Assembly (NCBI GenBank): GCA_002269645.1
Contig: NIVC01000195.1
Coordinates: 310,001 to 374,000, forward strand
Reading direction: 5' to 3'
Length of the DNA: 64,000 nucleotides
Source: Macrostomum lignano
Taxonomy: Eukaryota
Positions 7-25,080 of the stretch are shown one piece after another. The notes under the pieces were generated by a model. It saw nothing but the letters and a program-made list of their open reading frames with translations, was not told where the DNA came from and did no database searches. The first letter of the stretch is position 1. The number at the start of each line of letters is the position of its first letter. Position numbers and translations under genes: made by a program.

Positions 7-1092
7 ATGGAGGAGCTCATCGCGAGGGTCAGCGTACAGTCGGGTACCGACACTCGGCGTCGCCGTCAACAGCGAGGAGGCGGCTGCTTCAACTGCGGCC
101 AGCTCGGACACCGTGCAGCGCAATGTCAGCAGCGAGAGAAACAGCCGGGTCCGATCATCTGCCACAAGTGCTCTGGGCGGGGCACAAGGCCTCTGTCTGC
201 CCATCGAAGGCTCCGGGAAACTTTTAAGGGTTGGTGCAACGGGTGCGGGACCCACACCAACCCAAGGAGCAATCCCGTGCTTCATGCTATTTTTATACCT
301 GGAGAGGCAAACGGCAAGCCGTGCCGCTGGCTGCTGGACACCGGAGCGCAGACCTCGCTGATCAGCGACGTTGCTTTGAGAGAGCTGGACGGTCGCTGCG
401 AGCTGAAGCCGGCAGATGTCAGGCCTGTGTCCGTGGACGGCTCCGTTCTCGAGCTGTTAGGAAGCGTGAGCATTACGGTGCGACTCAGTCATCAGCTGCG
501 CAGACAAATGGACGTTCTGGTGGTCAGAGGGATTCGCCCAAACTTCATCCTGGGGATGGATTTCGTGAGCAAAGCGGCCAGATCGCAGTTCAGCATTGAC
601 CAGGGTGCCAAGACAGTCACATTCGATGGTGAGGCGGTTCCGTTCAGTAACTGCGATTCCAAGCAAGATGGCCCGCTGTCTTGTTGCTTGGTTCCCACAG
701 TGATCATCGCCAGAGTTCAGGGCGCCGTCGTGGTACCGCCAAGGTCAGTTAAAGTGGTGGACGTGACGACCGAGACCAAGCAGGCACATGGCATCTTCGA
801 GCCGTCACAGGACTTCATCGACAGAATCGGAGTGCTGCCCGGCCGCGTGTTCGCGGTGTCTTCAGAGAGCGGCAAGATTCCGGTTCAGGTGTGCAACCTC
901 AGCTGCAGCCCGGTCACGCTGTTCTCCAACCAGAGCATCGGCACCTTCGAGAGCGCGGAGGTTATCGACGAGGACGAGGACGTGCACGAGTGGCGAGGCC
1001 CCGCAGACCAGTTCAACATCAATCCGGAGCTGCCGGAGGAGGACAACACGGCGTCATCGAGCCCTCCACCAGCCCGTGGGCGAGCAACCTGA
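7..1092 (+). pseudogene. Gypsy-1 gag C-terminus plus aspartic protease (frame-disrupted)
   Basis: CFNCGQLGHRAAQC is a CCHC knuckle. A second knuckle, CHKCSGRGHKASVC, is restored by adding one G at ~181. True gag ends GNF* at 225-227. Protease motif is LLDTGA. Confidence 0.85.
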
Positions 1093-3675
1093 AAAATCGT
1101 CAGAAAGAAGAATAATGACATCCGAGTCTGTGTAGACTGGCGGGCGCTGAACAACCTCACAGTGAAGGACGCCCACCCGCTGCCGCATTTGCACCAAGCG
1201 CTCGACTCCTTGGCTGGCTGCTCATGGTTCTCTACGATCGACATGCGCCAAGGCTTCCTTCAGGTGGAGGTCAGAGAGGAGGATCGGCCGTTGACAGCGT
1301 TCTACACTCCGAGCGGCCTGATGCAATTCCGCAAAATGGGATTCGGCATGTGCAACGCGCCTGCGACGTACCAGCGAATGATGGAGCTCATCATGACCGG
1401 CCTGAGCTGGGAGGAGGTCATCGCGTACATTGATGACCTGATCATCTTCAACAGGGACTTTGAGAACCACGTTCAGTCACTGTCCAAGGTGCTGCATCGA
1501 CTGCGGTCTGCCAAGCTAAAGCTGAACCCAGGCAAGAGCTTCTTTGCCTACCGGAGCGTCACGTACCTGGGTCACCAAGTCTCTGAGAGCGGCATCGCAC
1601 CTGCCGCGGAGAAGGTCGAGGCGATCAGGCGGATGCCGGAGCCGCAGTCTGAGGAGGATGTTCGACGCATCATCGGCATGCTCAGCTTCTACCGCAGGTT
1701 CGTGCCCAACTTCTCTGACATTGCCAAACCGCTGCATCACCTGGCTCAGAAAGGCGCGGGCGGCGGCTTCGTGTGGACGTCAGAGCATGCTGCGGTGCTG
1801 AACAAGTTGAAGGACGCGCTGACCCAGGCCCCGGTGCTCCAGCTGCCCGACTTCAGCCGGCCTATCGTCATCAGCTGTGACAGCAGTGCTGTGGCCTTGG
1901 GTGCGGTGCTCAGCCAGGAGCGCGACGGCCAGGAGCTGCCAGTGGCCTACGCTTCCCGGACGCTGAGCAAGGCAGAGCGCAACTACAGCACCACGGACCG
2001 GGAGCTGCTCGCCATTGTTTGGAGCCTCAAGCAGTTCCGCATGTACCTGAGCAACAGCTGCAAGATCCAGGTGTTCACCGACCACAAGCCGATCACTGGG
2101 CTGCTCAACGCGAAGGAGCCAACCGGTCGGCTGGCACGTTGGCTACAGCTCATTCAGGAGTTCCCCCTGGAGATCCTGTACCGGCCCGGCAAGGAAAACA
2201 TCGTGCCAGACACCCTCAGCCGAGCAGCGGCGGTGCAGTTCCAGATCGCTAATCTGCCTGACGAGCAGGACCAGGACCAGGTTCTGCACGCGGTTCGGCA
2301 CGCGATGCTCCAGCTCAACTTTCAAGTTCCGGCGGCGGTGAGTGCATCGGTCCAGAAGCTGCTGCCCTGTCTGACGCTGTCACCGGACGGCGCACTGCTC
2401 CACAACGGGTTGCCGGTGATCCCCCAGCACATGAGAGCGGAGCTGCTGCAACAGGCGCACGACCGGCCGAGCGCGGGTCACCTCGGACAGCGGCGGGTGC
2501 TGCGGGCTCTGCGCGAGCGTTCCTGGTGGCCGGACATGCGCGAGGACGTGCGGGACTGGGTGCGGAGCTGCCTGGTCTGCCAACGACGCAAGGGAGCGCC
2601 AAAGCGAGCGCGCGCTGAGCTGGTGCGGCAGCCGCTACCGGCCAAGCCGTGGGCTGTCATGCAACTCGACATCAAGGGCCCACTGCCAGTCACCGAGTCT
2701 GGCAAGCGCTACATCATCTGCTTTGTCGACACATTTTCAAAGTGGGTGGAGGCGGCGGCCCTCAGCCAGATCGACGCCAAGACGGTAGCCGAGGCTCTGG
2801 TGACCTGCGTGGTGCTGCGGCACGGAGTTCCGGAGGTCGTGCACTCGGACCAAGGTCGCCAGTTTGAGGCCGAAGTTTTCAAGCAGACCTGCGCGCTGCT
2901 CGGAGCAGAAAAATCGAGGACCTCACCGTTTCACCCCAGCGGCAACGGGAACGTCGAGAGGTTCAATAGGACGCTGGGCAACATGCTCTCCGCATTCTGC
3001 TCAGAGAATCAGGCCAGCTGGGACGCCCTGCTGCCCTATGTCGTGTGGGCCTACAACAGCTCTGAGCACAGCTCCACGGGCGAGTCGCCGTTCAAAGTGC
3101 TACGCGGCATCGAGCCCAGACTGCCGGTCGACTTGGCACTCGGTGGGCAGTGCGACCAGCCGCAGGACTGCGCGGACCTGCAGGCGAGAATCAGGCGCGG
3201 CTTTCAGGTAGTGCGGGCGCACCTGCACACGGCCCAGAAATCGCAGCACGAGTTCTACAACCTAGGGGCAGAGACTACCGACTTCAAGACCGGTGACCGA
3301 GTGATGCTGACGCACCATGCGATGAAGCGCGGCCAGTGCAAGTCGCTGTCGAACCGGTGGTCCGGCCCGTTCATTGTCCTTAAGAAGGTCAGCCCTGTGA
3401 ACTACCGGCTGCAGGCTGTGAACGGCAGGCGCCGCTTGCTGGTCCACCACGACCGCTTGAAGCGCTTTATCGACCGACCGAATCTGAGCGGCAGGCCGCC
3501 AGCCAAGCCGGCCACCGAGGACGACTGTCAGAGCGTCGAGGACGCCGCGGGCCAGCTGGCCGGCCCGGACGCGTGGGAGCCGCTGCGCAACCTGGACGCG
3601 GCTGAACCCGGCAACGCGGTGCGCCGGTCGGGCAGGCAGCGCCGGCGGCCGGATTTTTACACGGCGACCTGTTGA
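1093..3675 (+). CDS. Gypsy-1 pol: RT, RNase H, integrase
   Basis: KIVRKKNNDIRVCVDWRALN, YIDD (RT); ISCDSS, TDHKP (RNase H); H-x6-GH...C-x2-C; QLDIKG, HSDQG, GNVERFN (DDE integrase); GPF motif. The RT N-terminus is broken upstream of 1093. Confidence 0.92.
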   Translation, partial: KIVRKKNNDIRVCVDWRALNNLTVKDAHPLPHLHQALDSLAGCSWFSTIDMRQGFLQVEVREEDRPLTAFYTPSGLMQFRKMGFGMCNAPATYQRMMELIMTGLSWEEVIAYIDDLIIFNRDFENHVQSLSKVLHRLRSAKLKLNPGKSFFAYRSVTYLGHQVSESGIAPAAEKVEAIRRMPEPQSEEDVRRIIGMLSFYRRFVPNFSDIAKPLHHLAQKGAGGGFVWTSEHAAVLNKLKDALTQAPVLQLPDFSRPIVISCDSSAVALGAVLSQERDGQELPVAYASRTLSKAERNYSTTDRELLAIVWSLKQFRMYLSNSCKIQVFTDHKPITGLLNAKEPTGRLARWLQLIQEFPLEILYRPGKENIVPDTLSRAAAVQFQIANLPDEQDQDQVLHAVRHAMLQLNFQVPAAVSASVQKLLPCLTLSPDGALLHNGLPVIPQHMRAELLQQAHDRPSAGHLGQRRVLRALRERSWWPDMREDVRDWVRSCLVCQRRKGAPKRARAELVRQPLPAKPWAVMQLDIKGPLPVTESGKRYIICFVDTFSKWVEAAALSQIDAKTVAEALVTCVVLRHGVPEVVHSDQGRQFEAEVFKQTCALLGAEKSRTSPFHPSGNGNVERFNRTLGNMLSAFCSENQASWDALLPYVVWAYNSSEHSSTGESPFKVLRGIEPRLPVDLALGGQCDQPQDCADLQARIRRGFQVVRAHLHTAQKSQHEFYNLGAETTDFKTGDRVMLTHHAMKRGQCKSLSNRWSGPFIVLKKVSPVNYRLQAVNGRRRLLVHHDRLKRFIDRPNLSGRPPAKPATEDDCQSVEDAAGQLAGPDAWEPLRNLDAAEPGNAVRRSGRQRRRPDFYTATC

Positions 3676-4242: not shown

Positions 4243-4290
4243 TTGAATTGGAGAGTCTGGATTGCAGTAGTTCCGCAACTTTGCCCGCAG

Positions 4291-5584
4291 GTGAAGGACG
4301 GCTCGGTGCCGCTCGCGCTGGAGCAGGAGGGCGGCCAGCTGGCGGTGCCGATCCGCCTGCCGAACCGGCCGAACAGCCCGGCTGAAGCGGTCGGCTCGTT
4401 CAGCTGCAAGCTGTGCGGCGTGTCTGTGGAGTCGGCGATGACCGTGGCGCAGCACTGGGCCGCCGAGCACCCGCAGGCAAAGCCGCCATTCGGCTGCCCG
4501 GTCTGCCCCCGCACCTGGTTCGTTCTGCGCGAGCAGGCCGAGGCCCACCTAAAGGAAGCGCACTCCACCGATGCGAGCGTGGCTGCCGCAGCCGTCGACT
4601 GCGGCCACGCTGTCTGCGACGCCCCCGGCTGCAATTTCAGCAAAGTCTGCCAGCTGGAAGAGGCGGTCGGCCATCTGCTGCGCTGTCACTCGGCGGCAGG
4701 GGCCGACCAGCTCACCCTGGCCTGCCCGCTGTGCTCGCACATGCGCATGTCCTCGCTTGACCTGGCCAAGGCGCATCGGCGCATCGACCATGCCGGCGTG
4801 CCGCCCGACCTGATGCCGATGCCCCGGCTTAGCGGCCGGACCGCCAAGCTGATGCGCATTGAGGTGAGTGATTGCTCTGGCTGTGCTGCTTGCCGGCCTA
4901 TCCTGACAGCTAATCACTTTTTGCCTTTGCTTCCCGCAGCCGGTGCCGCAGGCCGCTTCCGTTTCAGCAGCCGCCACTTCCGAGGCGGCTGCTTCTATCG
5001 CGCCCGCGTCCGCTGCCGCAACTGCCGCGGCACCCGCTCGACAGGCATCGCCGCCGCTGCCGGAGGGCGGCGGGTCTCACCAAGAGCCGCCTGCCCCGGC
5101 GTCTGAGGAGCCGCAGCCGCCCGAGCTGCAACCGCAGGTGACTTCGGCGAGAACTGAGCCGACGCCGACGCCAACGCCAACGCCCACGCCAACGACGGAG
5201 CCGCAGGAGCCGCGCAGCGAGGCGGAGATGCAGAGAGAGATCGAGTCGCGAGGTCTGATCTTCGTGCCATCGTGCGACGTCCGCCTGATGGAGCCGCTCT
5301 ACCCCGGCTGCGACCCCTTGAACCCGACGTCGGCCGACCTCGCCGAGGCCTTCCGCGTGCTTCGCGTCTTGCCGCCCTCGGCACCCGCAACTGCCGGGGC
5401 GACCACCAACTTTGTGACTACGGCGGCCGGGCGTCAGGCGGGTGCTGCGGCGACCGCCCAGCTATTCGCCCTGCCGCAGGGTGGCGGCCGCGGCATCCCA
5501 GGCGGGGCGGAGCAGTCGGGCACGATGCCCTACCCGCCGGGCTACTTCGCGCAAGGAGGCGGGGGCGTCAGACGACAGCGATAA
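4291..5584 (+). CDS. C2H2 zinc-finger protein, last two exons (4291-4863, 4940-5584); upstream exons not in the window
   Basis: Four C-x2/4-C-x12/13-H-x4-H fingers (CKLC, CPVC, CDAPGC, CPLC). Acceptor TTTGCCCGCAG at 4290. Phase-0 intron GTGAG...CCCGCAG at 4864-4939 joins to a Pro/Ala-rich tail ending TAA. Confidence 0.75.
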
Positions 5585-7208: not shown

Positions 7209-8298
7209 TGAGGTGGGGCGGAGAAAGGTTTATAACAAGAAATTTTTCGAAAGTTGGTCGTTTGAAAAGCTGGGTTTCCTCGAAACCGAACGGCGTTGAG
7301 TTCGCACGAATTGAATCCGGAAAAATCCGTGTGGCCGAATCCCAATAGAATGTCTCGTAGATACTCCGACTGCCGGGGTCCTCAATCCCGGGGGAGGGTA
7401 GTTTAGTCGTAGACGAGCGGTCTTCGTTGGCGCGAGCGTTCAGAACGGGTCCTCAGACACCGAATTTATCGTATCTCGTATGTTTGACTTAACTGGTTAC
7501 TAACAGTAGAGTAGCGCTGCCACCACCGTAATTCGCGTATTACGGAACGTTGGAGTCTCAGAACTTGCTTCGAGATGAGACTGGGTTGTTTTACGCCCCA
7601 CGGGCAAATGACTCAAAATAAGCTAGGCTTCAGGCTATTAATAAAAATTAACGTAAAATCGACTGTTTTATTAGTTCGTAAAAATTCAGGTAGTAAAAGT
7701 ATAAGGGACCGAACCCTACTCCGGCGGATGATTTGCCGGTGCCGCGGTGCACGACTGAATAAAACGGCTTACGCTAGTTGTAGTTAGATTGGGCGAATTA
7801 AATATTAGTTGTTAAATTGAATAGGGAGAGAGAGCGAGGGTGGGCACAAAACTTAAAGAAGAACCTAAACCAAACTAAAAACCAAACTAAACCTAACAAA
7901 ACACAACACACAACTAAAAATTGGGCAGCACTAGGGCACCATTAAATAGAGAAAAGGAGCGCAAAAGATGGACAAATGGGGTCAAACATTGGTGGCAAAA
8001 GGTGGTCACGGGGTCCAAGCATCGAACAAACAAAAAAGACACGGAAAGATAGGGAGTTAAACAAAATTTCCAAAAGAGGGACGCAGAGGACCAGAAAAAG
8101 GAGTGGGAAGACCAACGCAAGAACGGGGAGACTGACGAAATAAGCCAACGACTGGGGGCACAGGGTGGACACAGAGGACCAAAAACTGGGGACAGCGGGA
8201 ATGGGTCAAAAGGTGGTTTAATAAGTCACGTAGAATAAATTTAGAAATTAAAATATTCAAGTTCGCTAAATTGTTAGTGGCAGCCCCCAACTGCCACA
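7209..8298 (-). repeat. 3' LTR of Gypsy-2 (1090 bp)
   Basis: Direct repeat of 16569-17659. Minus-strand termini TGTGG...CCTCA. Confidence 0.97.
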
Positions 8299-8345: not shown

Positions 8346-8993
8346 TCACTGGTAGCGCCCTCGATGGGCGACGGCGCGTCCTCCGCGATTGGCCGGCCGG
8401 GTGCCGCGGGGCGGGCCTCCGTCCGCGGCGGCCGCGTCAGCAGTCGGTGGGGCCGGGGCCGGATACGCACTGCTCGAGGCCGAGGTCGATGGGGCTGGGC
8501 GCAACGGCCAGCCTACGAGCTGCACTTGGCCATCTACGTACAGCAGCCGCTCGGAGCGCTTGGCCACGGCCACGTCCCAGAAGATACGTAGGCGGGGGAT
8601 CCATCCGTCGGCGAGATGGCCCGCCTCCCAATAGGCAATGGCTAGAAAAAGGGCCAGGGCCGGACGCTGGGTCCCTCCGCGCTGTAACAGGCATATCTCG
8701 GCTTGGTGCAGTTGCTCGTCGAGCAGATCGCGGGTATGTTCGGGCCGCATCAGCTTCAGTAGGATGCGCCAGGGCGCGTCGAGTTGAATCCGCCCTCGCC
8801 GGGATGCCTGTCTCCGGGCTTCATCAAGTTCCGTTTTTAGTCGCTGACGGATGGGAGCCGCGCCAGTCAGAGCGGCCGATAAGGTCCGCAGCTCTTCGGA
8901 TTCTCCTCTGCGGAGCCAGGGTGCTCGAGCAGATGGGGGTTCGGGTGCCGGCGTCGGGTGACTAGCAGCTCCTGGGTTGGCGTTATTGTACAT
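8346..8993 (-). CDS. Gypsy-2 accessory ORF3, 215 aa, unknown function
   Basis: Uninterrupted ATG-TGA ORF in a GC-rich island between AT-rich non-coding DNA, same sense as pol, ending 47 nt before the 3' LTR. Preceded by a CTAAT branch-like motif and a CAG acceptor (~9013). Confidence 0.65.
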   Translation of the reverse strand: MYNNANPGAASHPTPAPEPPSARAPWLRRGESEELRTLSAALTGAAPIRQRLKTELDEARRQASRRGRIQLDAPWRILLKLMRPEHTRDLLDEQLHQAEICLLQRGGTQRPALALFLAIAYWEAGHLADGWIPRLRIFWDVAVAKRSERLLYVDGQVQLVGWPLRPAPSTSASSSAYPAPAPPTADAAAADGGPPRGTRPANRGGRAVAHRGRYQ

Positions 8994-10114
8994 ATCGACG
9001 GCGGGCTCGCAGCTGATAGTCGGCAGATAAATAAGCAGTGAATATTAGCAAAAGGGATTAATATACAGAGAAGATAGATATATATATACAAGGAAACTTG
9101 CGAATAATAGCGATTGAGAAGCTTAATTACAAAATGAATGTCGCACGGAGGCAAAGTCAAAGTTAACTGATTTGGGGGCTGAGAAAATGAAACGCATCCT
9201 TAAATACTTTTCAACAGGCCAGGTTTTGGCCAGCAGGGCCAAAAGCTGGGTAAAACAGATTCACCACCCCCCGCCGCGCACTCCAATTGAGGTTACGCAG
9301 AGAAACTGGGGGGGGGAGGAGCCATAAAAATTGGTAAACCACGAGATAGGGGTGCGGTGCCGCCTTGTCAAAACTTAGGCTGGGCTTCAGATCGATGAAA
9401 CGAGAAGGCCCCAATTGGGCTCACAAGAACAGGGGTCGCTTGTGAAACTATAGAGTCGCAAACACCAGTTTTAGAATTACACAAATGGCGGCAAAAGAAC
9501 AAAATCGGGGTGCCTAACCAACATTTATATAGAAATAGCAGAATAAGAGATAATAACTGAAAAAGGCATGCAGGTCTCCGTAAGGAGCTATACAAACAGA
9601 GGGGAGGAAAGGCACTGGGAAAATTTTCCCAGGCTCGGCTCGATCGGAACAAAAACGGGAGCCTCGATTTAACACGGCCTTGAACAAAGAGGGCCTGCTC
9701 CGGGTGCGGCAGGACAGAGAGTTAACCCGACTGGTTGAAAAGTACATTCGGTTTGAAAACTGGGCTGAAAAGGTTTTACAAGAAATTTGAAAAATGTTAC
9801 GCGTTTATGTTACAAAGATGAGCAAAATTTCAGCACTTTGGGCGTGTGCGAAGAAATTATAGCTAACTTTCACAGAACAGAAAGGGGGAAACTCACGCAA
9901 AGCTGCGGTATCGCAGGTGGATAAATAAAGGCGCATTGGTGCGGGCTTTTACCGGAAAGCCTAAGGCTAAATATGAGCGCAGTGGTGCAGGCTTATCATA
10001 ACGCATCGCATAAGCATGAGCACGTAGTAACATAGGTTATAGCTTTTATCCGGAAAGCTTAAGGAGAGGGGAATAAAACGCTTTGACAGGAAGCAAAGGT
10101 TGCAATAAAGAATC

Positions 10115-10428
10115 TGCTTTTACCCTCAAGCATAAGGTTTACAGTAGAGAGATTGCTTTTACCCTCAAGCATAAGGTTTACTGTAGAGAAATTGCTTTTA
10201 CCCTCAAGCATAAGGTTTACAGTAGAGAAATTGCTTTTTACCCTCAAGCATAAGGTTTACAGTAGAGAAATTGCTTTTACCCTCAAGCATAAGGTTTACT
10301 GTAGAGAAATTGCTTTTACCCTCAAGCATAAGGTTTACAGTAGATAAATTGCTTTTTACCCTCAAGCATAAGGTTTACAGTAGAGAAATTGCTTTTACCC
10401 TCAAGCATAAGGTTTACTGTAGAGAAAA
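10115..10428. repeat. 39-bp tandem array (8 copies) inside Gypsy-2
   Basis: Unit TTGCTTTTACCCTCAAGCATAAGGTTTACAGTAGAGAAA. Confidence 0.95.
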
Positions 10429-10572: not shown

Positions 10573-13500
10573 TTAATTACCTTGAATTTCGACCTCCATT
10601 CCAATGTCTGGCAGGTCCGGATCGTCTTCTTCTAGCACTTCGGGATGGCGTAGGCTCGGTTCAAAGAGTTGGCTGCCTCGCAGATCGGGCTGGGCTGCGG
10701 CCTGCGGCTCTGATGCGGGCTGATTAACTGAATCCGTTTCGCTTTCCTCGCTGGACTCGTAGGGCAACATCGGCCGCTCAGTTTGTTGCGGCGGCTCCTG
10801 CGGTCGTTCAGCCATTGTTCGCGGCACTTTGATGATATTGTTCCGGTGTACAAGCACCTCAGCTGGGCGTCCTCGTCGTGCTGTGGCAGGTCTGATCCAA
10901 TAGGCAACTTCGCCGACTTTCTTCACAACTTTATACATGCTCTTATACGGCCGGTGAAACTTGGGCAACTCTCCCAGCTCGAGCTTCGGGTTGGCCAGGC
11001 AGACCAGATCTCCGGGCTGCAGTTCCACAGGTTTTGGCCGGTTCTCATAGTACTCTTCTCGGCGTTGGATTTCTGCTCTCAGTCGCTGTCTCACAATACG
11101 TTCAGTTTCGGCCAGTCTACGCTGATGTTTGGCAATGTACTCCGGGAGGTCAGCTGATATGTCCAGGCGGTCCAGGGTGTTGTCGATAGGATATCGATAG
11201 GGCACTCCATAAACGACATAGTGCGGCGAGAACCCGGTAGTACGATTGACGGCAGATCTTAGTGCAGTCAAAGCGGCTGGCAGCATCTTGTCCCACTGTT
11301 GATGATCTTCTAGGAGACAGGTGAGCACTTTCTTAATATTTTTATTGCACGATTCAGCTTGTCCGTTTGCCCAGGGCGAGTATGGCGGCTTCGTTGTCTG
11401 CCTGATGCCGTAGACTTCGCAGAAGTGTCGGAACTCATGCCCTGTAAACTGCTTGCCTTGATCCGAATGAATCCAAGCGGGGATTCCGGTGATCGGAAAG
11501 ACTTGCTCTTGCAGGAGCGTGATTATCGTCTTAGCGCGCTGGTTCTTCATGGCGAAAGCGAATGGGTACTTCGACGTGGTGTCGACGTAGGTTAAGATGT
11601 ACTTATTTCCTCGATCTGTCGGATCTCCAGTGGGGCCCAAAATGTCGATAGCACATCGCCCATAGATTTCGCAGACCGGAAACGACTGTACATGCGCCGG
11701 GATTCGTCGCCGTCCTTTGCTTAAGGTGCAGGTCTGGCAGGAAGCGACGTAGTCGGACACTGCTTTGGCCAGAGCAGGTCGCCAGAAACGTTCGCGCACT
11801 TTAGCAATGGTGAGGTCTCGGCCCATGTGTCCGCAGTAGGGCGAACCATGCAGGTCGGCGAACACGGTGGCATCGAGACTCCTCGGCAGGACGATTCGCG
11901 CTTTGTCCTCTTCTCCGACATCGTCGAGATGTATAACTAATAGTCCATCGTCTCGGACTTCTAATTGCTCATAAAACGCTAACAGATTTCGCTCGTCTCT
12001 CGTCATGTTCAGACGTTGGTTCAGCGGCGGCTTCGGTTGTCGGGTTTCCAATAGATTGATCACCATGGCGATGGCAGAGTCAGCACGCTGATGGGTCTGG
12101 AGCTCCTCGCGAGTGACTGGCCTCGGGATGTGATCTGTTAGATTCAGAGTACGGCGTCTGTCTGTAGGATTTGCTGGCGCGGCATCGGCTGTGGCGGCAT
12201 GGTTCGGGGTCGGGAGCTCCCTACGCATAGTCGCTACTTGGACCGGTGGCCGGGCTGTTGCTGTATTTGAAGGCCGATCCGTGTCGGTGGCTTCGGCGTC
12301 ACTGTCGTTAGAATTTGAATCGTCAGCAGATAATGATGAGTCAGCGGAGCTGTCGGCGTCGCTGCTGAATCTCACCTTCTTGAACTTAGGGCAGCGAGCG
12401 GGTTGGCAGCGGTCATCTCTGGCTGCACTGTGGTCGCTGTCCTCGTCACCTTCAGCTAGTAGTCGGCGGCTCCTCGTGGGGCAACATGTCGAACTGCTAA
12501 AGCTGGTGGGCGACCTCTGTGAGTCCCGGCAACGACTGGCAGATGGCCTCGACTTCGTCGCCGGCGGAAGCAGCTCTGTCAGCGGCTTGCTGTCGGCTGT
12601 CGGTGTTGCGGGCGGCGTAGTCTCGCCGTTGGACTCAGTTGATTTCGTCGGCGGCTTTCGTCGGTGACGGCGGGTCGGTCGCTTCTTGCTCGGTAGAGGA
12701 CTAGGGTGGCTGCTGTCGTGGACCTTCGGCGCCGCTGCGCCAGTTATCGCGGCTGGCTGCTTACTTTGGTCCCCGTCGGCTGCCTCGCGCTGAGCCTCCT
12801 CCAAGCATTCGGCGTCGTCCTCAGGCCGTCTAGAGAGGCCGTCGGCGTTCTGATGCTGACTTGACTTCCTGTGTTGAATCTCGAACTCGAATTCGCTCAG
12901 GCGTTGTAGCCATCTTCCAAAGATTCCTATTTGTTGAGTTCGCCTTAAGATCCAGGTTAATGCGGCATGATCGGTTCGGCAGATGAACTTCTTGGCCAGC
13001 AGGTAGAAGCGGAAATGTCGCATTCCGTCTACGACTGCAACAGTTCCTGCTTCGTAATCGGATAGCGGGCTTCGGCTGGCTTGAGTCGCCGGGAGAAGTA
13101 GCCAATTGGGCGCTCGATTCCATCAGCTTGGCGTTGGCTCAGGCAGGCTCCGATCCTGGTCGCAGAAGCATCCGTGTCCAAGATAAACATTACTTCAGGA
13201 TCCTCGCTGAACTGCGGATACGCGAGCACTGATGTCGAAGTCATAGCTGCCTTGAGCTGGTCGAACGCGTCTTGCTGGGCTTTTCCCCATAGACAATTGA
13301 AATTCCGAATTTTCTTTTCTTTGATCAAATCATGGAGCGGAGCTGCAAGTTCTGCGTAGCCGGGTACGAATTTAGCATAATAAGCGCACGTGCAGACAAA
13401 GCTTTTAAGTTGCCGGGCTGTTCTTGGTCTTGGCCAGGTTTGGATTGCTTCAATTTTCGCCGGATCGGTCTTGATGCCGTCCTTAGTTACTAGGTGTCCC

Positions 13501-15164
13501 AAATAATTTAGACTTTCCCGAAATAAATGGCACTTCTTGCCTTTGAACTTTAAGTTGGCGTCTTGCACTCGTTTGAAAACCTCTTCCATATGTTGAAGAT
13601 GGTCGTTGAACTTCTTGGAGTAGACGATGACATCATCTAAGTAGGCAATTGCACTTTTGTAGGCTATCCCGTTGAGCACAGCATTCATAAGTCTCATGAA
13701 GCTGGCTGGAGCTGAGCTAAGTCCCATAGGCATAACATTGTAGGCGAATTGTCCGCGGTGCAGCGTAGCGAATGCAGTCAGATCTTGATCTTCTGGACGC
13801 AGAGGAATCTGATAGTAGCCGCTATTTAAATCGAATGTACTAAACAGCTGGCTTCCTTCGAGACTGGCGAACGCTTCTTGAATATTAGGAATCGGGTACG
13901 GAAAGTACTCACATTTCTGATTCAAACTTCGAAAGTCTTGTACAATCCTCAGGCTGCCGTCCTTCTTCGGGATGATCACCAGCGGGGTGTTGTAGCTGGA
14001 AAAGCTTGGTCTGATCACACCTTTGGCAAGAAGATCGTCTAGCAGCTGATCCACCTTCGGTAACAGATGTGGCGGAATCCTTCGCGTCGGCAGGTGTACC
14101 GGATCCTTGTCCTTTAGTACGATGTTATGGGTGACCAGATGAGTTCGGCCGAGATCGTGTGGCCCCTGGGAAAAGATGTTCTTGTACTTCTTTAGCAGCT
14201 CGATGACTTGAGCGCGCTGGTCACTGGACAGGTCCTCGCCGATATCGATCTCCTTGATCCAAGCGTCCGGATCTTCGTCTTGGATTTGCTTGACGGAGTC
14301 TTCTGACTTCAGTAGCGGGAAGAACTGTAGCTCGGGCAGTCTGATTGGTCTTGCTATCCCGACTAGGGCGTTCGCTCGCACTTTGATGGCTGTAGTGCCT
14401 CGATTGATCATCTCTATTGCGCCTTCTCCATTCGCCATTGATATCAGGGCAGGCGCGGCGTCCAGATGCTGCACATCGTCTTCGCGCCGAGCCGGTTTCA
14501 GCGGCTCGATCACAGCGGGTGTCCCTTGGTTTTCCTCACGTCCTTTTGCTAATTTGATTTTAATTCGGGCTGAAGATAATGGTGGCACAGTAGTGCTCTC
14601 GGCGGTATAAATTCTGCACGTGGTAGCTTCAGTTCGCGTGTAGCGAAGCGGTGCGGCAGTGCCGTCCTTGAAGAACAGCATCCCGGCGGCGAGATCTAGT
14701 GAGGTGCTATACTTCTCTAGAAACTCGAAGCCTAGGATGTTGTCGTGAGATCCCTTTGCTAGCAGAAACTTAACTGTCGGCTCAAAACTTCCGATTTTAA
14801 CTTTGATAGTTAATTGGCCTGCCATCTGAATTGGTTCTCCGTTGTAGGTCACGATGCGTTGCTGGCAGGGCTCGATTTGGCCACGCAGGGTTGGGTCATC
14901 AGTACATAAACGGTGCCAGGTGCTGAATCCTAAGACTTCGCACTTGGAGCCAGTGTCTAGAAGAAAAGCAAAATAGCGGCCCTGAATCTCACCAGTTAGA
15001 AATGGATCCCTTCGAGGTCGCTTGGGTGCAGAGTTCTGTACAGGTGCGGAGGCGGTCTCAGCAGTGGCCTGCTGAGCGACTAAAGTCCTCGGCGGGGACT
15101 TCAGTGCTGGCTCGGCTGCTGGATGGCGCTGCCCCCGATGGCGCGTCCAGCCGTCGCGTTTCCC
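10573..15164 (-). CDS. Gypsy-2 pol polyprotein (protease, RT, RNase H, long linker, integrase), one 1-nt frameshift at ~13038
   Basis: FLLDTGS; YLDD; ILDTDAS; TDHAAL; H-x5-GH...C-x2-C; AIDILG, HSDQG, GQAESCN. Adding one G restores QELLAVVDGMRHF across ORFs 13029-15251 and 10573-13023. Confidence 0.93.
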
Positions 15165-16534: not shown

Positions 16535-16567
16535 GTGGTGTTTCGAAATCCCACTTAGCTGACACCA
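16535..16567 (-). promoter_or_regulatory. Primer-binding site, tRNA-Leu-like
   Basis: Minus strand TGGTGTCAGCTAAGTGGGATT, 1 nt after the 5' LTR. Resembles the complement of the eukaryotic tRNA-Leu 3' end (TGGTGTCAGAAGTGGGATT) with a 2-nt insertion. Confidence 0.8.
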
Positions 16568-16568
16568 A

Positions 16569-17659
16569 TGAGGTGGGGCGGAGAAAGGTTTATAACAAGA
16601 AATTTTTCGAAAGTTGGTCGTTTGAAAAGCTGGGTTTCCTCGAAACCGAACGGCGTTGAGTTCGCACGAATTGAATCCGGAAAAATCCGTGTGGCCGAAT
16701 CCCAATAGAATGTCTCGTAGATACTCCGACTGCCGGGGTCCTCAATCCCGGGGGGAGGGTAGTTTAGTCGTAGACGAGCGGTCTTCGTTGGCGCGAGCGT
16801 TCAGAACGGGTCCTCAGACACCGAATTTATCGTATCTCGTATGTTTGACTTAACTGGTTACTAACAGTAGAGTAGCGCTGCCACCACCGTAATTCGCGTA
16901 TTACGGAACGTTGGAGTCTCAGAACTTGCTTCGAGATGAGACTGGGTTGTTTTACGCCCCACGGGCAAATGACTCAAAATAAGCTAGGCTTCAGGCTATT
17001 AATAAAAATTAACGTAAAATCGACTGTTTTATTAGTTCGTAAAAATTCAGGTAGTAAAAGTATAAGGGACCGAACCCTACTCCGGCGGATGATTTGCCGG
17101 TGCCGCGGTGCACGACTGAATAAAACGGCTTACGCTAGTTGTAGTTAGATTGGGCGAATTAAATATTAGTTGTTAAATTGAATAGGGAGAGAGAGCGAGG
17201 GTGGGCACAAAACTTAAAGAAGAACCTAAACCAAACTAAAAACCAAACTAAACCTAACAAAACACAACACACAACTAAAAATTGGGCAGCACTAGGGCAC
17301 CATTAAATAGAGAAAAGGAGCGCAAAAGATGGACAAATGGGGTCAAACATTGGTGGCAAAAGGTGGTCACGGGGTCCAAGCATCGAACAAACAAAAAAGA
17401 CACGGAAAGATAGGGAGTTAAACAAAATTTCCAAAAGAGGGACGCAGAGGACCAGAAAAAGGAGTGGGAAGACCAACGCAAGAACGGGGAGACTGACGAA
17501 ATAAGCCAACGACTGGGGGCACAGGGTGGACACAGAGGACCAAAAACTGGGGACAGCGGGAATGGGTCAAAAGGTGGTTTAATAAGTCACGTAGAATAAA
17601 TTTAGAAATTAAAATATTCAAGTTCGCGAAATTGTTAGTGGCAGCCCCCAACTGCCACA
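16569..17659 (-). repeat. 5' LTR of Gypsy-2 (1091 bp)
   Basis: Matches the 3' LTR except one extra G in the G-run at ~16750 and one substitution (17628 G vs 8267 T). Confidence 0.97.
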
Positions 17660-23143: not shown

Positions 23144-25080
23144 ATGGGCGGCGTGAACAGCCTGTGCATCGGCCGCTGCCGGCACCCGTCCGACACGCCG
23201 GAGAATCACCTGCATTGGCGCCGGCCGCCCCGACCGCTGCCGCCGTCCTCCCTGCAGTGCAAAAATGGAGCCGCGGCCAAGACCCCCGGCACTCCACTTC
23301 GTGTTGACGCGGGCGAAGCTGCTCCAGCCGCTGCCGAGTCCGACGCATCTGCCGTCTTCGGCGACCTTCAGCAGCCGCCGCCGTCGCAACCGACAGAGTC
23401 GCTGCCCGCCCGGCCAAGTCGCTGGTCTCTGCGGGAATCCTTCGGCGGCAAGTCCGGCAAGTCGCACCGGCGCAACCTCAGCGCCGCCTTCTCGCAGATC
23501 TCCAGCCCGGACGACCCTGACGATCCTCAGCGGCAGCGGCTGCCGAAGTTCGAGCTGCTTGAGCTGAACTCGGCCAGCGAGGAGCAGTTTATGACCCTGC
23601 CCGGGGTCAACCGGACCACCGCCGGCAACATCGTGGCCTATCGACGCCAAATTGGCGCCTTTCGCCGCGTCGAGGACCTGGCGCTGGTGCCCGGCATCGG
23701 CGGCGACAAGCTGCGACTGCTGCGCCCGGAGGTCTGCGTCCGCGCCGGCTCGCCCTCTCCTCAGTCCGCTGCGTCGCCAACCTCAGCAAACGGCGGCGCA
23801 AAGCCGCTTGCGCTGAACTCGGCGAACCTGTTCCAGCTGATGCGCCTGCCGGGAGTCTCCCAGTCCACCGCCGAGTCCATCATCGGCGAGCGGCAGCGGC
23901 GCGGCGGCTTTCGCTCCCTTGACGAGGTCGCCGCCCTCCACGGCGTTGGCTGGGGCCTCCTGGCCGGCCTTCGTGGCCGCCTCTGCCTGGACGCCCCGAG
24001 GAGGAGCCGGCCAGCGACCTGCCCGCTGGCGGCATCGGGCGGTTCAGCGAGTCGCAGCTCTGCCTGCTGGCCGAGTGCCGCATCTTCGATCGGCCGTACG
24101 CGCGGCCGCCGACCTGCGCCGCCTTCGACAGCCTGCTGGCCGGGCGGCCTACCGTGCGGATCGCCGCCTGGAATCTCAACCGGCTCAATCTGGAGAAGGC
24201 CTCCAACCCGGGCGTTATGGAGGTTTGTGGGGCTGCCAATTTGTCCAAATAAAAGAAAATTTTACAAAAGTCTTATACTGTCCTGACCTCCCGCCAGGTG
24301 ATCTGCTGCACCCTACTGGAGAACGCCATCTCAGTGCTGGCTGTACAGGAGCTCACGGAGCCGGCCGCTCTGCAGCGCATCTGCGACGAGCTCAACCAGC
24401 CCAGCCTCCCCGCTGTGTTGCGCTGGCGCGGCGGCGACCGCGGCCACTGGACCGCCTGCGTCTCCGAGGCGCCCGTCGGCCGGGCCTTCCAGGCTGCCGA
24501 ATTCGGCGGATTTCTCTGGCGTGCCGGCCCGCAGCTGCGGTTCCGCCAGGCCGCCCCGCTGGAGAAGCCCGGCGCTGGCGGTCGCGCATTCACGCGCAGT
24601 CCGTTTGTTGCGCAGCTGTCCATCGGCGGCTGCCGCCTCCTGGCTGCCAGCCTGCATTTGAAGGCGACGACGCTTGGCGGCGACTCCGCCGGCACCTCTC
24701 GCACCGAGTCCGAGGCCGACTTCCTGCCCGACCTCGCCGACGCCCTCGCCTCCGTCGCCGGCCCCGACGCCCGCTGCCTGCTTCTCGGCGACTTCAACCT
24801 GGCGCCCGACCACGCCGCTTTCGAGCCGCTCCGCCTGATGGGTTACTCCGGTCTGCTGGCCGCTGACGAGCCAACTAACATCAGCCGCGAGTGCCCGGCC
24901 GGCAGCCGCTCCTATGACAACCTGTGGGCCAGTCCGCTGTGCAAGCGGCTCTTCACCGGCCAGGCTGCCGTGGTCCGCAACGGCCTTTTTCATCCGCTCA
25001 TCCCCGCCAACTGGAGCTTCGGCGGCCCCGTCAGCGACCACTGCCCGGTGTACGCCGAGTTCTACTCTGATGCTGAGTAG
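23144..25080 (+). CDS. EEPD1: Endonuclease/exonuclease/phosphatase family domain-containing protein 1 (two HhH domains + EEP domain); exons 23144-24222, 24298-25080
   Basis: N-terminal MG..C, two ComEA-like HhH repeats (LNSASEEQFMTLPGV, LNSANLFQLMRLPGV), RIAAWNL...EKASNPGVME|VICCTLLEN..LAVQE, GDFN, SYDNLW, SDHCPV. One missing C at ~23997 breaks the frame. Confidence 0.92.

Follow-up and report, generated by a model that had tools for sequence, protein, structure and literature searches.

Two alternative accessory genes occupy one slot in a Ty3/Gypsy retrotransposon family of the flatworm Macrostomum lignano

Third open reading frames that do not encode an envelope protein are already known from retrotransposons, and the parts of the literature drawn on here describe several systems of this kind or close to it. 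The LTR retrotransposons Juno and Vesta of bdelloid rotifers carry non-env ORF3s with a DEDDy exonuclease and a GDSL esterase (PMC5408684). In Oikopleura, the elements Tor3b and Tor4b express their third ORF from a mapped internal promoter, which in Tor4b lies in the intergenic space after pol (PMC4402516), and the Cer1 element of Caenorhabditis elegans makes CERV, a large accessory protein, from a spliced mRNA (PMC10309623). The VANC proteins of Arabidopsis VANDAL elements are anti-silencing factors whose targets vary between related elements (PMC5735166). Env-bearing elements have also been described in flatworms, with a gB-type env and the order gag-env-pol (PMC13524379).

Here we analyzed a stretch of 64,000 nucleotides of M. 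lignano DNA (the window), in which a first-pass annotation made from the letters had pointed out a clean 215-aa ORF at the position where errantiviruses carry env. The ORF is indeed there, on the minus strand (8993-8346) and with the sequence quoted, and its host is a very young Ty3/Gypsy LTR retrotransposon on the same strand (Table 1). This element has LTRs, a flanking GTAG target duplication and the order gag then PR-RT-RNase H-IN, and its two LTRs differ by 1 mismatch and 1 gap over 1,090 nt. Its pol is split over two reading frames, with a break within RNase H near 13030. The third ORF (ORF3) starts 1,580 nt downstream of the pol stop (10573), in agreement with the gap of about 1.6 kb first described, and ends 47 nt before the 3' LTR.

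Table 1. Features of the ORF3-bearing element, in window coordinates and in the order of the element's minus strand.
Feature	Position	Strand	Basis or remark
5' LTR	16569..17659	-	LTR comparison
Primer-binding-site-like sequence, begins TGG	16550..16567	-	1 nt past the 5' LTR
gag, 465 aa	15101..16498	-	ORF and domain match
pol (RT, RNase H, integrase)	10573..14825	-	Protease frame extends upstream
Array of eight 39-nt units, all containing an inverted repeat TGCTT-N8-AAGCA	10091..10427	-	
GC-rich inverted-repeat motif, conserved	9257..9324	-	78 nt upstream of the TATA box
TATA box TATTTAAG	9199..9206	-	213 nt upstream of the ATG; predicted internal promoter
CTAAT...CAG	9013..9048	-	Exists in the window copy; not conserved family-wide
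A-specific cassette (end of 5' leader, start codon, core)	8489..9040	-	Comparison with L078
ORF3 type A, 215 aa	8346..8993	-	ORF, genome matches, codon analysis
Well-predicted helical bundle	8559..8861	-	aa 45-145, which are model residues 27-127
Pro/Ala then Arg/Gly-rich tail	8346..8488	-	In frame in both A and B, window subfamily
3' LTR	7209..8298	-	99.8% identity to the 5' LTR

Elsewhere, the window contains another Gypsy element, distinct from the first, with frames for gag-PR and pol (7-3675 and 4280-5584, plus strand); the Cys/His-rich frames that follow it match zf-Di19 weakly (E 0.005) and are probably exons of a host zinc-finger gene. A 380-aa frame with helix-hairpin-helix-like repeats (23144-24286, plus strand) presumably resembles an EEPD1-type host gene, and dense minisatellite arrays with periods of 13-85 nt fill the region from 21000 to 62000.

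Analysis of related copies confirmed that the ORF3 of the window copy, which we call type A, is a real, conserved accessory gene. Its protein has 113 matches in the genome of its host, many of which are decayed copies interrupted by stops, and a comparison across related elements, already suggested by the first-pass annotation, revealed coding constraint, with dN/dS values of 0.13 and 0.15 between the window ORF and two 87%-identical copies; between these two relatives themselves, which are close siblings, the value is 0.67. Distant A pairs taken between subfamilies (n = 148) have a median pN of 0.36 and a median pS of 0.73; 50 of them are saturated, and the median dN/dS is 0.24 in the remaining 98. 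In 18 non-redundant A cores, picked as open in the coding frame, third codon positions vary about twice as much as second positions (0.64 vs 0.32). A 158-aa antisense ORF was rejected as a candidate, the five non-coding frames being open in only 0-2 of these 18 members.

The slot that holds this gene has two states. A DNA search returned copies that match both flanks of ORF3 but not its middle, and these carry a different ORF, B, with 89 genome matches of its own. The window copy and its B-type sister L078 are 98.4% identical over 8,466 nt, upstream up to about 9027-9049, and 96.3% identical over 778 nt past the cassette (from 8488 on), and between these two stretches about 540 nt of A in the former are replaced by about 740 nt of B in the latter, the upstream edge of the replacement lying between 9027 and 9049. 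Synonymous difference between both copies amounts to 0.000 in RT, 0.014 in IN and 0.010 in gag, and in the window subfamily A and B each run in frame into the common Arg/Gly-rich tail. When 56 loci were picked by their promoter DNA alone, homologous duplicates included, 32 carried A, 21 carried B, none carried both, and 3 (one of them masked) carried neither within 1.5 kb; no third cassette type was present among the 56. ORF3 is, as these comparisons show, one of two alternative cassettes in a single slot.

Both alternatives are widespread and under constraint. We grouped 89 distinct cores (53 A and 36 B, taken from two hit lists) into 32 clusters by their 3' flank, and, with a fused locus described below set aside, both types were found in 7 of the 9 clusters, or LTR subfamilies, with at least 3 members. 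For B, dN/dS ranges from 0.07 to 0.37 in 9 close pairs, which indicates purifying selection. Insertions of both types are very recent, since, of 30 copies for which both LTRs were compared, 6 of type A and 8 of type B have LTR pairs with 99.3-100% identity, and young copies of both types are present in 5 subfamilies. Two kinds of local duplication were seen along the way: two B-type elements lie 9,505 nt apart, apparently in tandem with a common LTR, as either a real tandem insertion or an assembly duplication (G000:C1081:317969-337076), and in two contigs ORF3 plus part of the LTR is tandemly duplicated with a period of about 1,390 nt (L002/L005 in C4905, L006/L007 in C50).

The A/B pattern could be a mere by-product of an ancestral two-gene element, of recurrent deletions or of the parental genomes of an allotetraploid, with no selection for both types. 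In its favor, a hidden allotetraploid state and a redundant assembly have been reported for M. lignano (PMC12801592), A and B occur fused in one frame, and the A-type tail of one subfamily retains the last ~12 residues of the B core. This explanation is nevertheless highly improbable in our view: separate A and B genes in one element occur in 0 of the 56 loci, and B is not a deletion product of the fusion, because its conserved N-terminal Pro-rich region of about 100 aa is missing from the fusion, as it is from A. In addition, A and B have diverged in step to near synonymous saturation, far beyond pol, from which it follows that both persisted in each lineage while the rest of the element was homogenized.

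The depth of this divergence is seen when genes of the same elements are compared. Between subfamilies, RT shows a pN of only 0.02 and a pS of 0.40 (142 pairs), much shallower than the near synonymous saturation of both the A and the B cores. Distances between A proteins and between B proteins across subfamilies are correlated (Mantel r = 0.72, p = 0.0013, n = 7), also when the fusion and two looser pairings are included (r = 0.63, p = 0.0003, n = 10). Judged by these sequence distances, the correlation shows long co-persistence and not partnership, because linkage to the adjacent tail and LTR is by itself enough to make A and B track the subfamilies; such linkage leaves unexplained why neither cassette has been lost. 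The A and B trees are weakly resolved overall: the subfamily pair sf7+sf8 is supported in both (99/97 and 98/95), and in one conflict sf6/9 groups with sf5 in the A tree (85/87) and with sf1 in the B tree (96/97).

In the simplest reading of these distances, both cassettes would be older than the subfamilies and would have been kept in each, and recombination between co-packaged RNAs would have homogenized the remainder of the element. Template switching between co-packaged RNAs of LTR elements is an established process (PMC6894440). We consider it very probable that A- and B-type genomic RNAs are packaged together, so that template switching would homogenize gag, pol, spacer, tail and LTR, and that the cassettes cannot recombine internally. 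Mosaic elements with near-identical pol and a different LTR and ORF3, or the reverse, were observed in three comparisons (L077 vs the window copy, L065 vs L135 and L064 vs L103), and because of such mosaics pol can be said to move between LTR subfamilies. In L077, the RT is close to that of the window copy (pS 0.05) but the A protein is only about 50% identical and the LTR is different.

Regarding expression, the ORF had been proposed to be translated from a spliced subgenomic mRNA using a CAG acceptor at 9013. Both the branch-point-like CTAAT (9048-9044) and the CAG (9015-9013) exist, but comparison did not support the splicing proposal, as the acceptor is not conserved and sits inside the A-only cassette. 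In the B-type sister L078, no AG is found within 107 nt of the start codon, and 6 of 25 TATA-bearing representatives have none between TATA+30 and the start codon. These representatives come from a set of 34, reduced to 31 by leaving out one that lacks a start codon and two whose spacer is deleted; as A/B pairs have their upstream DNA in common, the 31 are not independent. With a pattern set after the data had been viewed, a TATA box was located 90-230 nt before the start in 25 of them, a large contrast to the mean of 0.74 in shuffles and the 0-3 in four other windows of the spacer. Of the 22 that have both elements, 20 show a GC-rich inverted repeat 67-92 nt upstream of the TATA box, and 23 of the 25 predicted leaders are devoid of upstream ATGs. 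An internal promoter is likelier than splicing as the source of ORF3, because the TATA box is conserved at a near-fixed distance behind the GC-rich inverted repeat and the acceptor is not conserved. Transcription would then probably start about 30 nt past the TATA box and give a short mRNA.

Four read sets that we guessed to be RNA, consulted as contigs, covered little of the window ORF3 and showed no junction at 9012. A contig of low depth crosses 8931-9146 without splicing, as would be expected equally of genomic RNA, of the predicted leader and of DNA. The variant letters in these contigs are those of the C2414/C4905/C50 group at 25 of 25 sites, a group whose ORF3 falls under the 90% threshold used.

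Upstream of the predicted promoter, and so expected to be confined to the genomic RNA, lies the array of short repeats. It is present in 28 of 30 spacers from the window and sister elements, with units of 34-46 nt that contain TGCTT-N8/9-AAGCA. The inverted repeat is perfect in 191 of 198 units, and the arms are identical across subfamilies in 183 of 198; a two-sided change in the arms is found in one subfamily, in all eight units of L077, as a single event. No canonical heat-shock element was found in the element. The array is a possible RNA export, packaging or stability element. The young copy L064 (LTRs 99.6% identical) has lost the whole spacer, array and promoter included, and this counts against a model in which ORF3 acts through the array, but the loss may post-date its last replication. 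The pol-ORF3 spacer is mostly or wholly deleted in L064 (C2067) and L148 (C1811), with the ORF3 start of L064 only a few bases past the pol stop, and the deletion junctions, inspected by eye, are unlike GT-AG splicing.

At the protein level, the lack of secretion and membrane signals noted in the first-pass annotation holds under measurement: the best 8-aa hydropathy near the N-terminus is -0.25, giving no signal peptide, the furin site R-x-K/R-R is absent, and the best 19-aa hydropathy is 1.06, giving no membrane anchor. Among 53 A cores this last value reaches 1.6 in 2 and 1.9 in none, and ORF3-A contains no N-x-S/T glycosylation sequon. The helical core with a basic tail that had been suggested is likewise supported, as AlphaFold2 predicts a helical bundle (mean pLDDT 81.5; helices at model residues 27-48, 56-63, 66-86, 93-105 and 115-124) followed by a lower-confidence beta hairpin. 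Invariant residues of the A core, in model numbering, are D54, W57, E105-A-G and G112-W113. Basic tails are found in both ORF3 types.

Neither protein could be assigned to a described family, which extends the initial impression that A belongs to none: Pfam, PDB, BFVD and the ESM Atlas put no name on A. Outside the host, a single-sequence search at near lengths gave 0 of 3,368 candidates, the A profile at longer lengths 0 of 7,998 and the B profile at longer lengths 0 of 7,993. Against 1.84 billion representatives, the A profile hit 2 proteins, both hypothetical proteins of M. lignano whose gene identifiers returned 0 papers. The best E-values among PDB sequences were 0.26 (A) and 0.84 (B), Foldseek at E<=0.001 gave nothing in PDB for either protein and nothing in BFVD for A, and the ESM Atlas returned a single unnamed hit (0.75) with A and no hit with B. 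At E<=1, none of 18 A members and none of 19 B members matched the DEDDy exonuclease or GDSL esterase families of Pfam, and the models of A and B are both essentially all-helical, unlike the alpha/beta fold of these enzymes. By these searches, carried out in full for A and less deeply for B, A and B are two protein families without a match in Pfam or PDB, A also having none beyond the host among the 1.84 billion representatives. The captured host domain raised by the first-pass annotation found no support. The best VIA structural match of A, a cullin repeat of CUL3 (Z 7.8, rmsd 3.8, 100 aligned), was dismissed as not distinctive, being tied with Munc13 and Sec39 bundles.

Additionally, several observations link A and B to each other. 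An A core is fused to a B core in an intact 291-aa frame at one old insertion present as three homologous copies (L163/L164/L162; G000 C616, C1020, C2108), in which RT was not found and gag and integrase are broken. The copies differ by 3-5 synonymous and 3-4 non-synonymous changes, and an identical protein is recorded as an M. lignano hypothetical protein, so that this locus can be regarded as a candidate host-retained gene. A second candidate host-retained copy, likewise from sequence, is an intact A-type ORF of 233-238 aa at one locus in three copies (L165/L166/L167; G000 C292, C4115, C1863); it has the promoter motif, lacks an LTR next to it and shows no match to gag-pol in the flanking DNA retrieved, and its protein is also recorded as hypothetical. 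The B model is a helical bundle too (pLDDT 85.0; helices at 2-18, 30-36, 41-61, 68-80 and 91-106), once an offset of 24-26 residues is allowed for, the five helices of A and B agree in length and interval, and several chains are matched by both models over the same stretch (for example 7qpg_S 890-996 vs 889-1008; 9la9_A 760-884 vs 762-893). The A and B sequence profiles are not significantly alike (hhalign E 0.4; permutation p 0.62). We lean slightly toward A and B being distant paralogues with one fold; the case for it is the predicted helical bundles, given the non-significant profiles, and such bundles resemble many proteins. A prediction of the A-B complex made with alignments unused scored 0.00, which counts neither for nor against binding.

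One specific form of kinship would make A and B a captured, diverged pair like Translin and Trax, forming a heteromer on RNA that interferes with small-RNA silencing. The C3PO complex is a heteromer of two paralogues, and Trax has four catalytic acidic residues. The top match of B among 48,161 chains is an archaeal C3PO (3zc0_A; Z 9.5, rmsd 2.7, 97 aligned), the next match standing at Z 8.0, but a Z of 9.5 is below the value of about 13 that the tool gives for helical bundles; B also aligns with human Translin (Z 6.8) and fly C3PO (Z 6.5). For A, Translin is absent among the structural matches listed. Its invariant Y-x-E-A-G-x-L resembles a stretch of fly Translin, yet the motif match and the fold match set A in conflicting registers. 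Profiles of A and B against a small alignment of host and archaeal Translin and Trax gave non-significant E-values (0.43 and 0.58), and at E<=1 the Pfam Translin model found none of 18 A members and none of 19 B members. We therefore judge a Translin/Trax origin improbable. The host itself has a divergent third Translin-like gene beside Translin and Trax (L176/L177; C406, C301).

The reading that we prefer, with a probability of roughly 0.4, is that ORF3 is an accessory gene with an A/B slot, likely with its own internal promoter, that encodes a predicted RNA-binding regulator acting together with the B product of sister copies. Its product would be a small helical scaffold with a basic RG-rich tail, working in a mode like that of CERV or Rev by analogy and not by membership. 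At a little under even odds, both A and B would be needed, either as partners or for complementary trans functions in one cell, and each subfamily would keep both for this reason. It is possible, with somewhat less confidence, that the Arg/Gly tail binds the element's own genomic RNA, for which the repeat-hairpin array is the candidate site, for export or for protection from silencing. Purifying selection on a trans-acting product made from a separate mRNA is hard to explain, because copies with a broken ORF3 should free-ride. That the pol of the window copy is itself split also counts against this reading.

This difficulty is where a first alternative does better. If A and B were independent, self-sufficient alternatives kept by balancing selection, each suited to different cell types (testis, ovary or stem cells of the hermaphrodite) or host defences, the advantage would go to the copy that carries the gene, and purifying selection would be easier to explain than under shared action in trans; the population evidence fits equally well, and the conserved N-terminal Pro-rich region that only B has would also suit proteins working on their own. 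We hold this alternative to be somewhat unlikely, as A and B sisters share the LTR and the promoter region to about 35-55 nt before the start codon, because of which their expression should be alike, and as the intact A-B fusion suggests that both cores work in one polypeptide.

A second alternative, in which ORF3 is a subfamily-specific transactivator or anti-silencing factor that acts at the DNA level on the LTR or internal promoter of its own element and evolves together with it, would also account for purifying selection through kin-specific action. Tas of foamy viruses and the plant VANC proteins would be its working analogues. ORF3 does travel with the LTR and not with pol, as seen in the contrast between RT and A-core divergence and in L077, and the layout with an internal promoter would suit such a factor. 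No DNA-binding fold was recognized in the searches with A or B, and the repeat core is common to all subfamilies (183 of 198 units), unlike VANC targets. Both proteins resemble CIDs, the RNA polymerase II CTD-interacting domains (A that of Seb1, Z 6.8, rmsd 2.8, 82 aligned; B that of RPRD1B, Z 6.4, rmsd 3.3, 92 aligned), but Z values of about 6-7 are usual for unrelated helical bundles. We regard this alternative as unlikely.

Taken further, the preferred reading of a two-part RNA-binding regulator would make this a functionally bipartite element. In this proposal, which we put forward tentatively, two genome types identical but for the cassette would encode the halves of one accessory machine, both of them required; the polymorphism would be older than the subfamilies and kept while template switching homogenizes the rest, and the fused, decayed insertion would perhaps have been kept by the host. 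That both versions were likely kept side by side for long would point to a division of labor between sister copies. If both are needed, this would be a division of labor among copies of a selfish element, for which a segmented virus or a mating-type locus offers a comparison, and the question of how trans-acting transposon genes resist free-riders would become testable in a worm with transgenesis and RNAi. Two protein families without a known match and two candidate host-retained copies are gained as well.

Non-env third ORFs being known, what is new here is the two-state accessory slot and the A and B families. In open-access full texts we found no report of a retrotransposon family in which two accessory genes alternate in a single slot in many lineages, and no description of the A/B protein family; the main text of the paper on M. 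lignano LTR elements, in the part available, does not contain the word "ORF" (PMC12801592).

Compared with the systems described above, as far as the cited parts of those reports go, the M. lignano elements share features with each and differ in others. Like the env of errantiviruses (Ty3/gypsy), ORF3 lies between pol and the 3' LTR, but ORF3-A has none of the env hallmarks of signal peptide, furin site and membrane anchor. As in Tor3b and Tor4b, ORF3 would have an internal promoter, and its elements lie, as in Tor4b, in the spacer between pol and ORF3, although here they are predicted from the sequence and in Tor they were mapped, and the Tor ORF3 is a transmembrane Env glycoprotein, unlike the M. 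lignano protein without signal peptide or anchor. As in VANC, a fast-evolving accessory gene is found next to tandem repeats in non-coding DNA, but VANDALs belong to the DNA transposons, and in M. lignano all subfamilies have the same repeat core (183/198). With CERV and with Rev/RRE the likeness concerns the working model, in which a novel accessory protein would act on genomic RNA with the hairpin array as response element; no sequence or fold link to CERV was found, and a two-type system is not described for Cer1 in the portion of that account used here. A further parallel is with Juno and Vesta, which also carry a non-env third ORF with varied cargo between pol and the 3' LTR, and in which two cargo types can fuse in one ORF3, as described for one isolate, paralleled here by the A-B fusion. 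Unlike in Juno and Vesta, where the cargo is family-specific and consists of recognizable enzymes, each subfamily here has two alternatives of no recognized family, carried by near-identical genomes.
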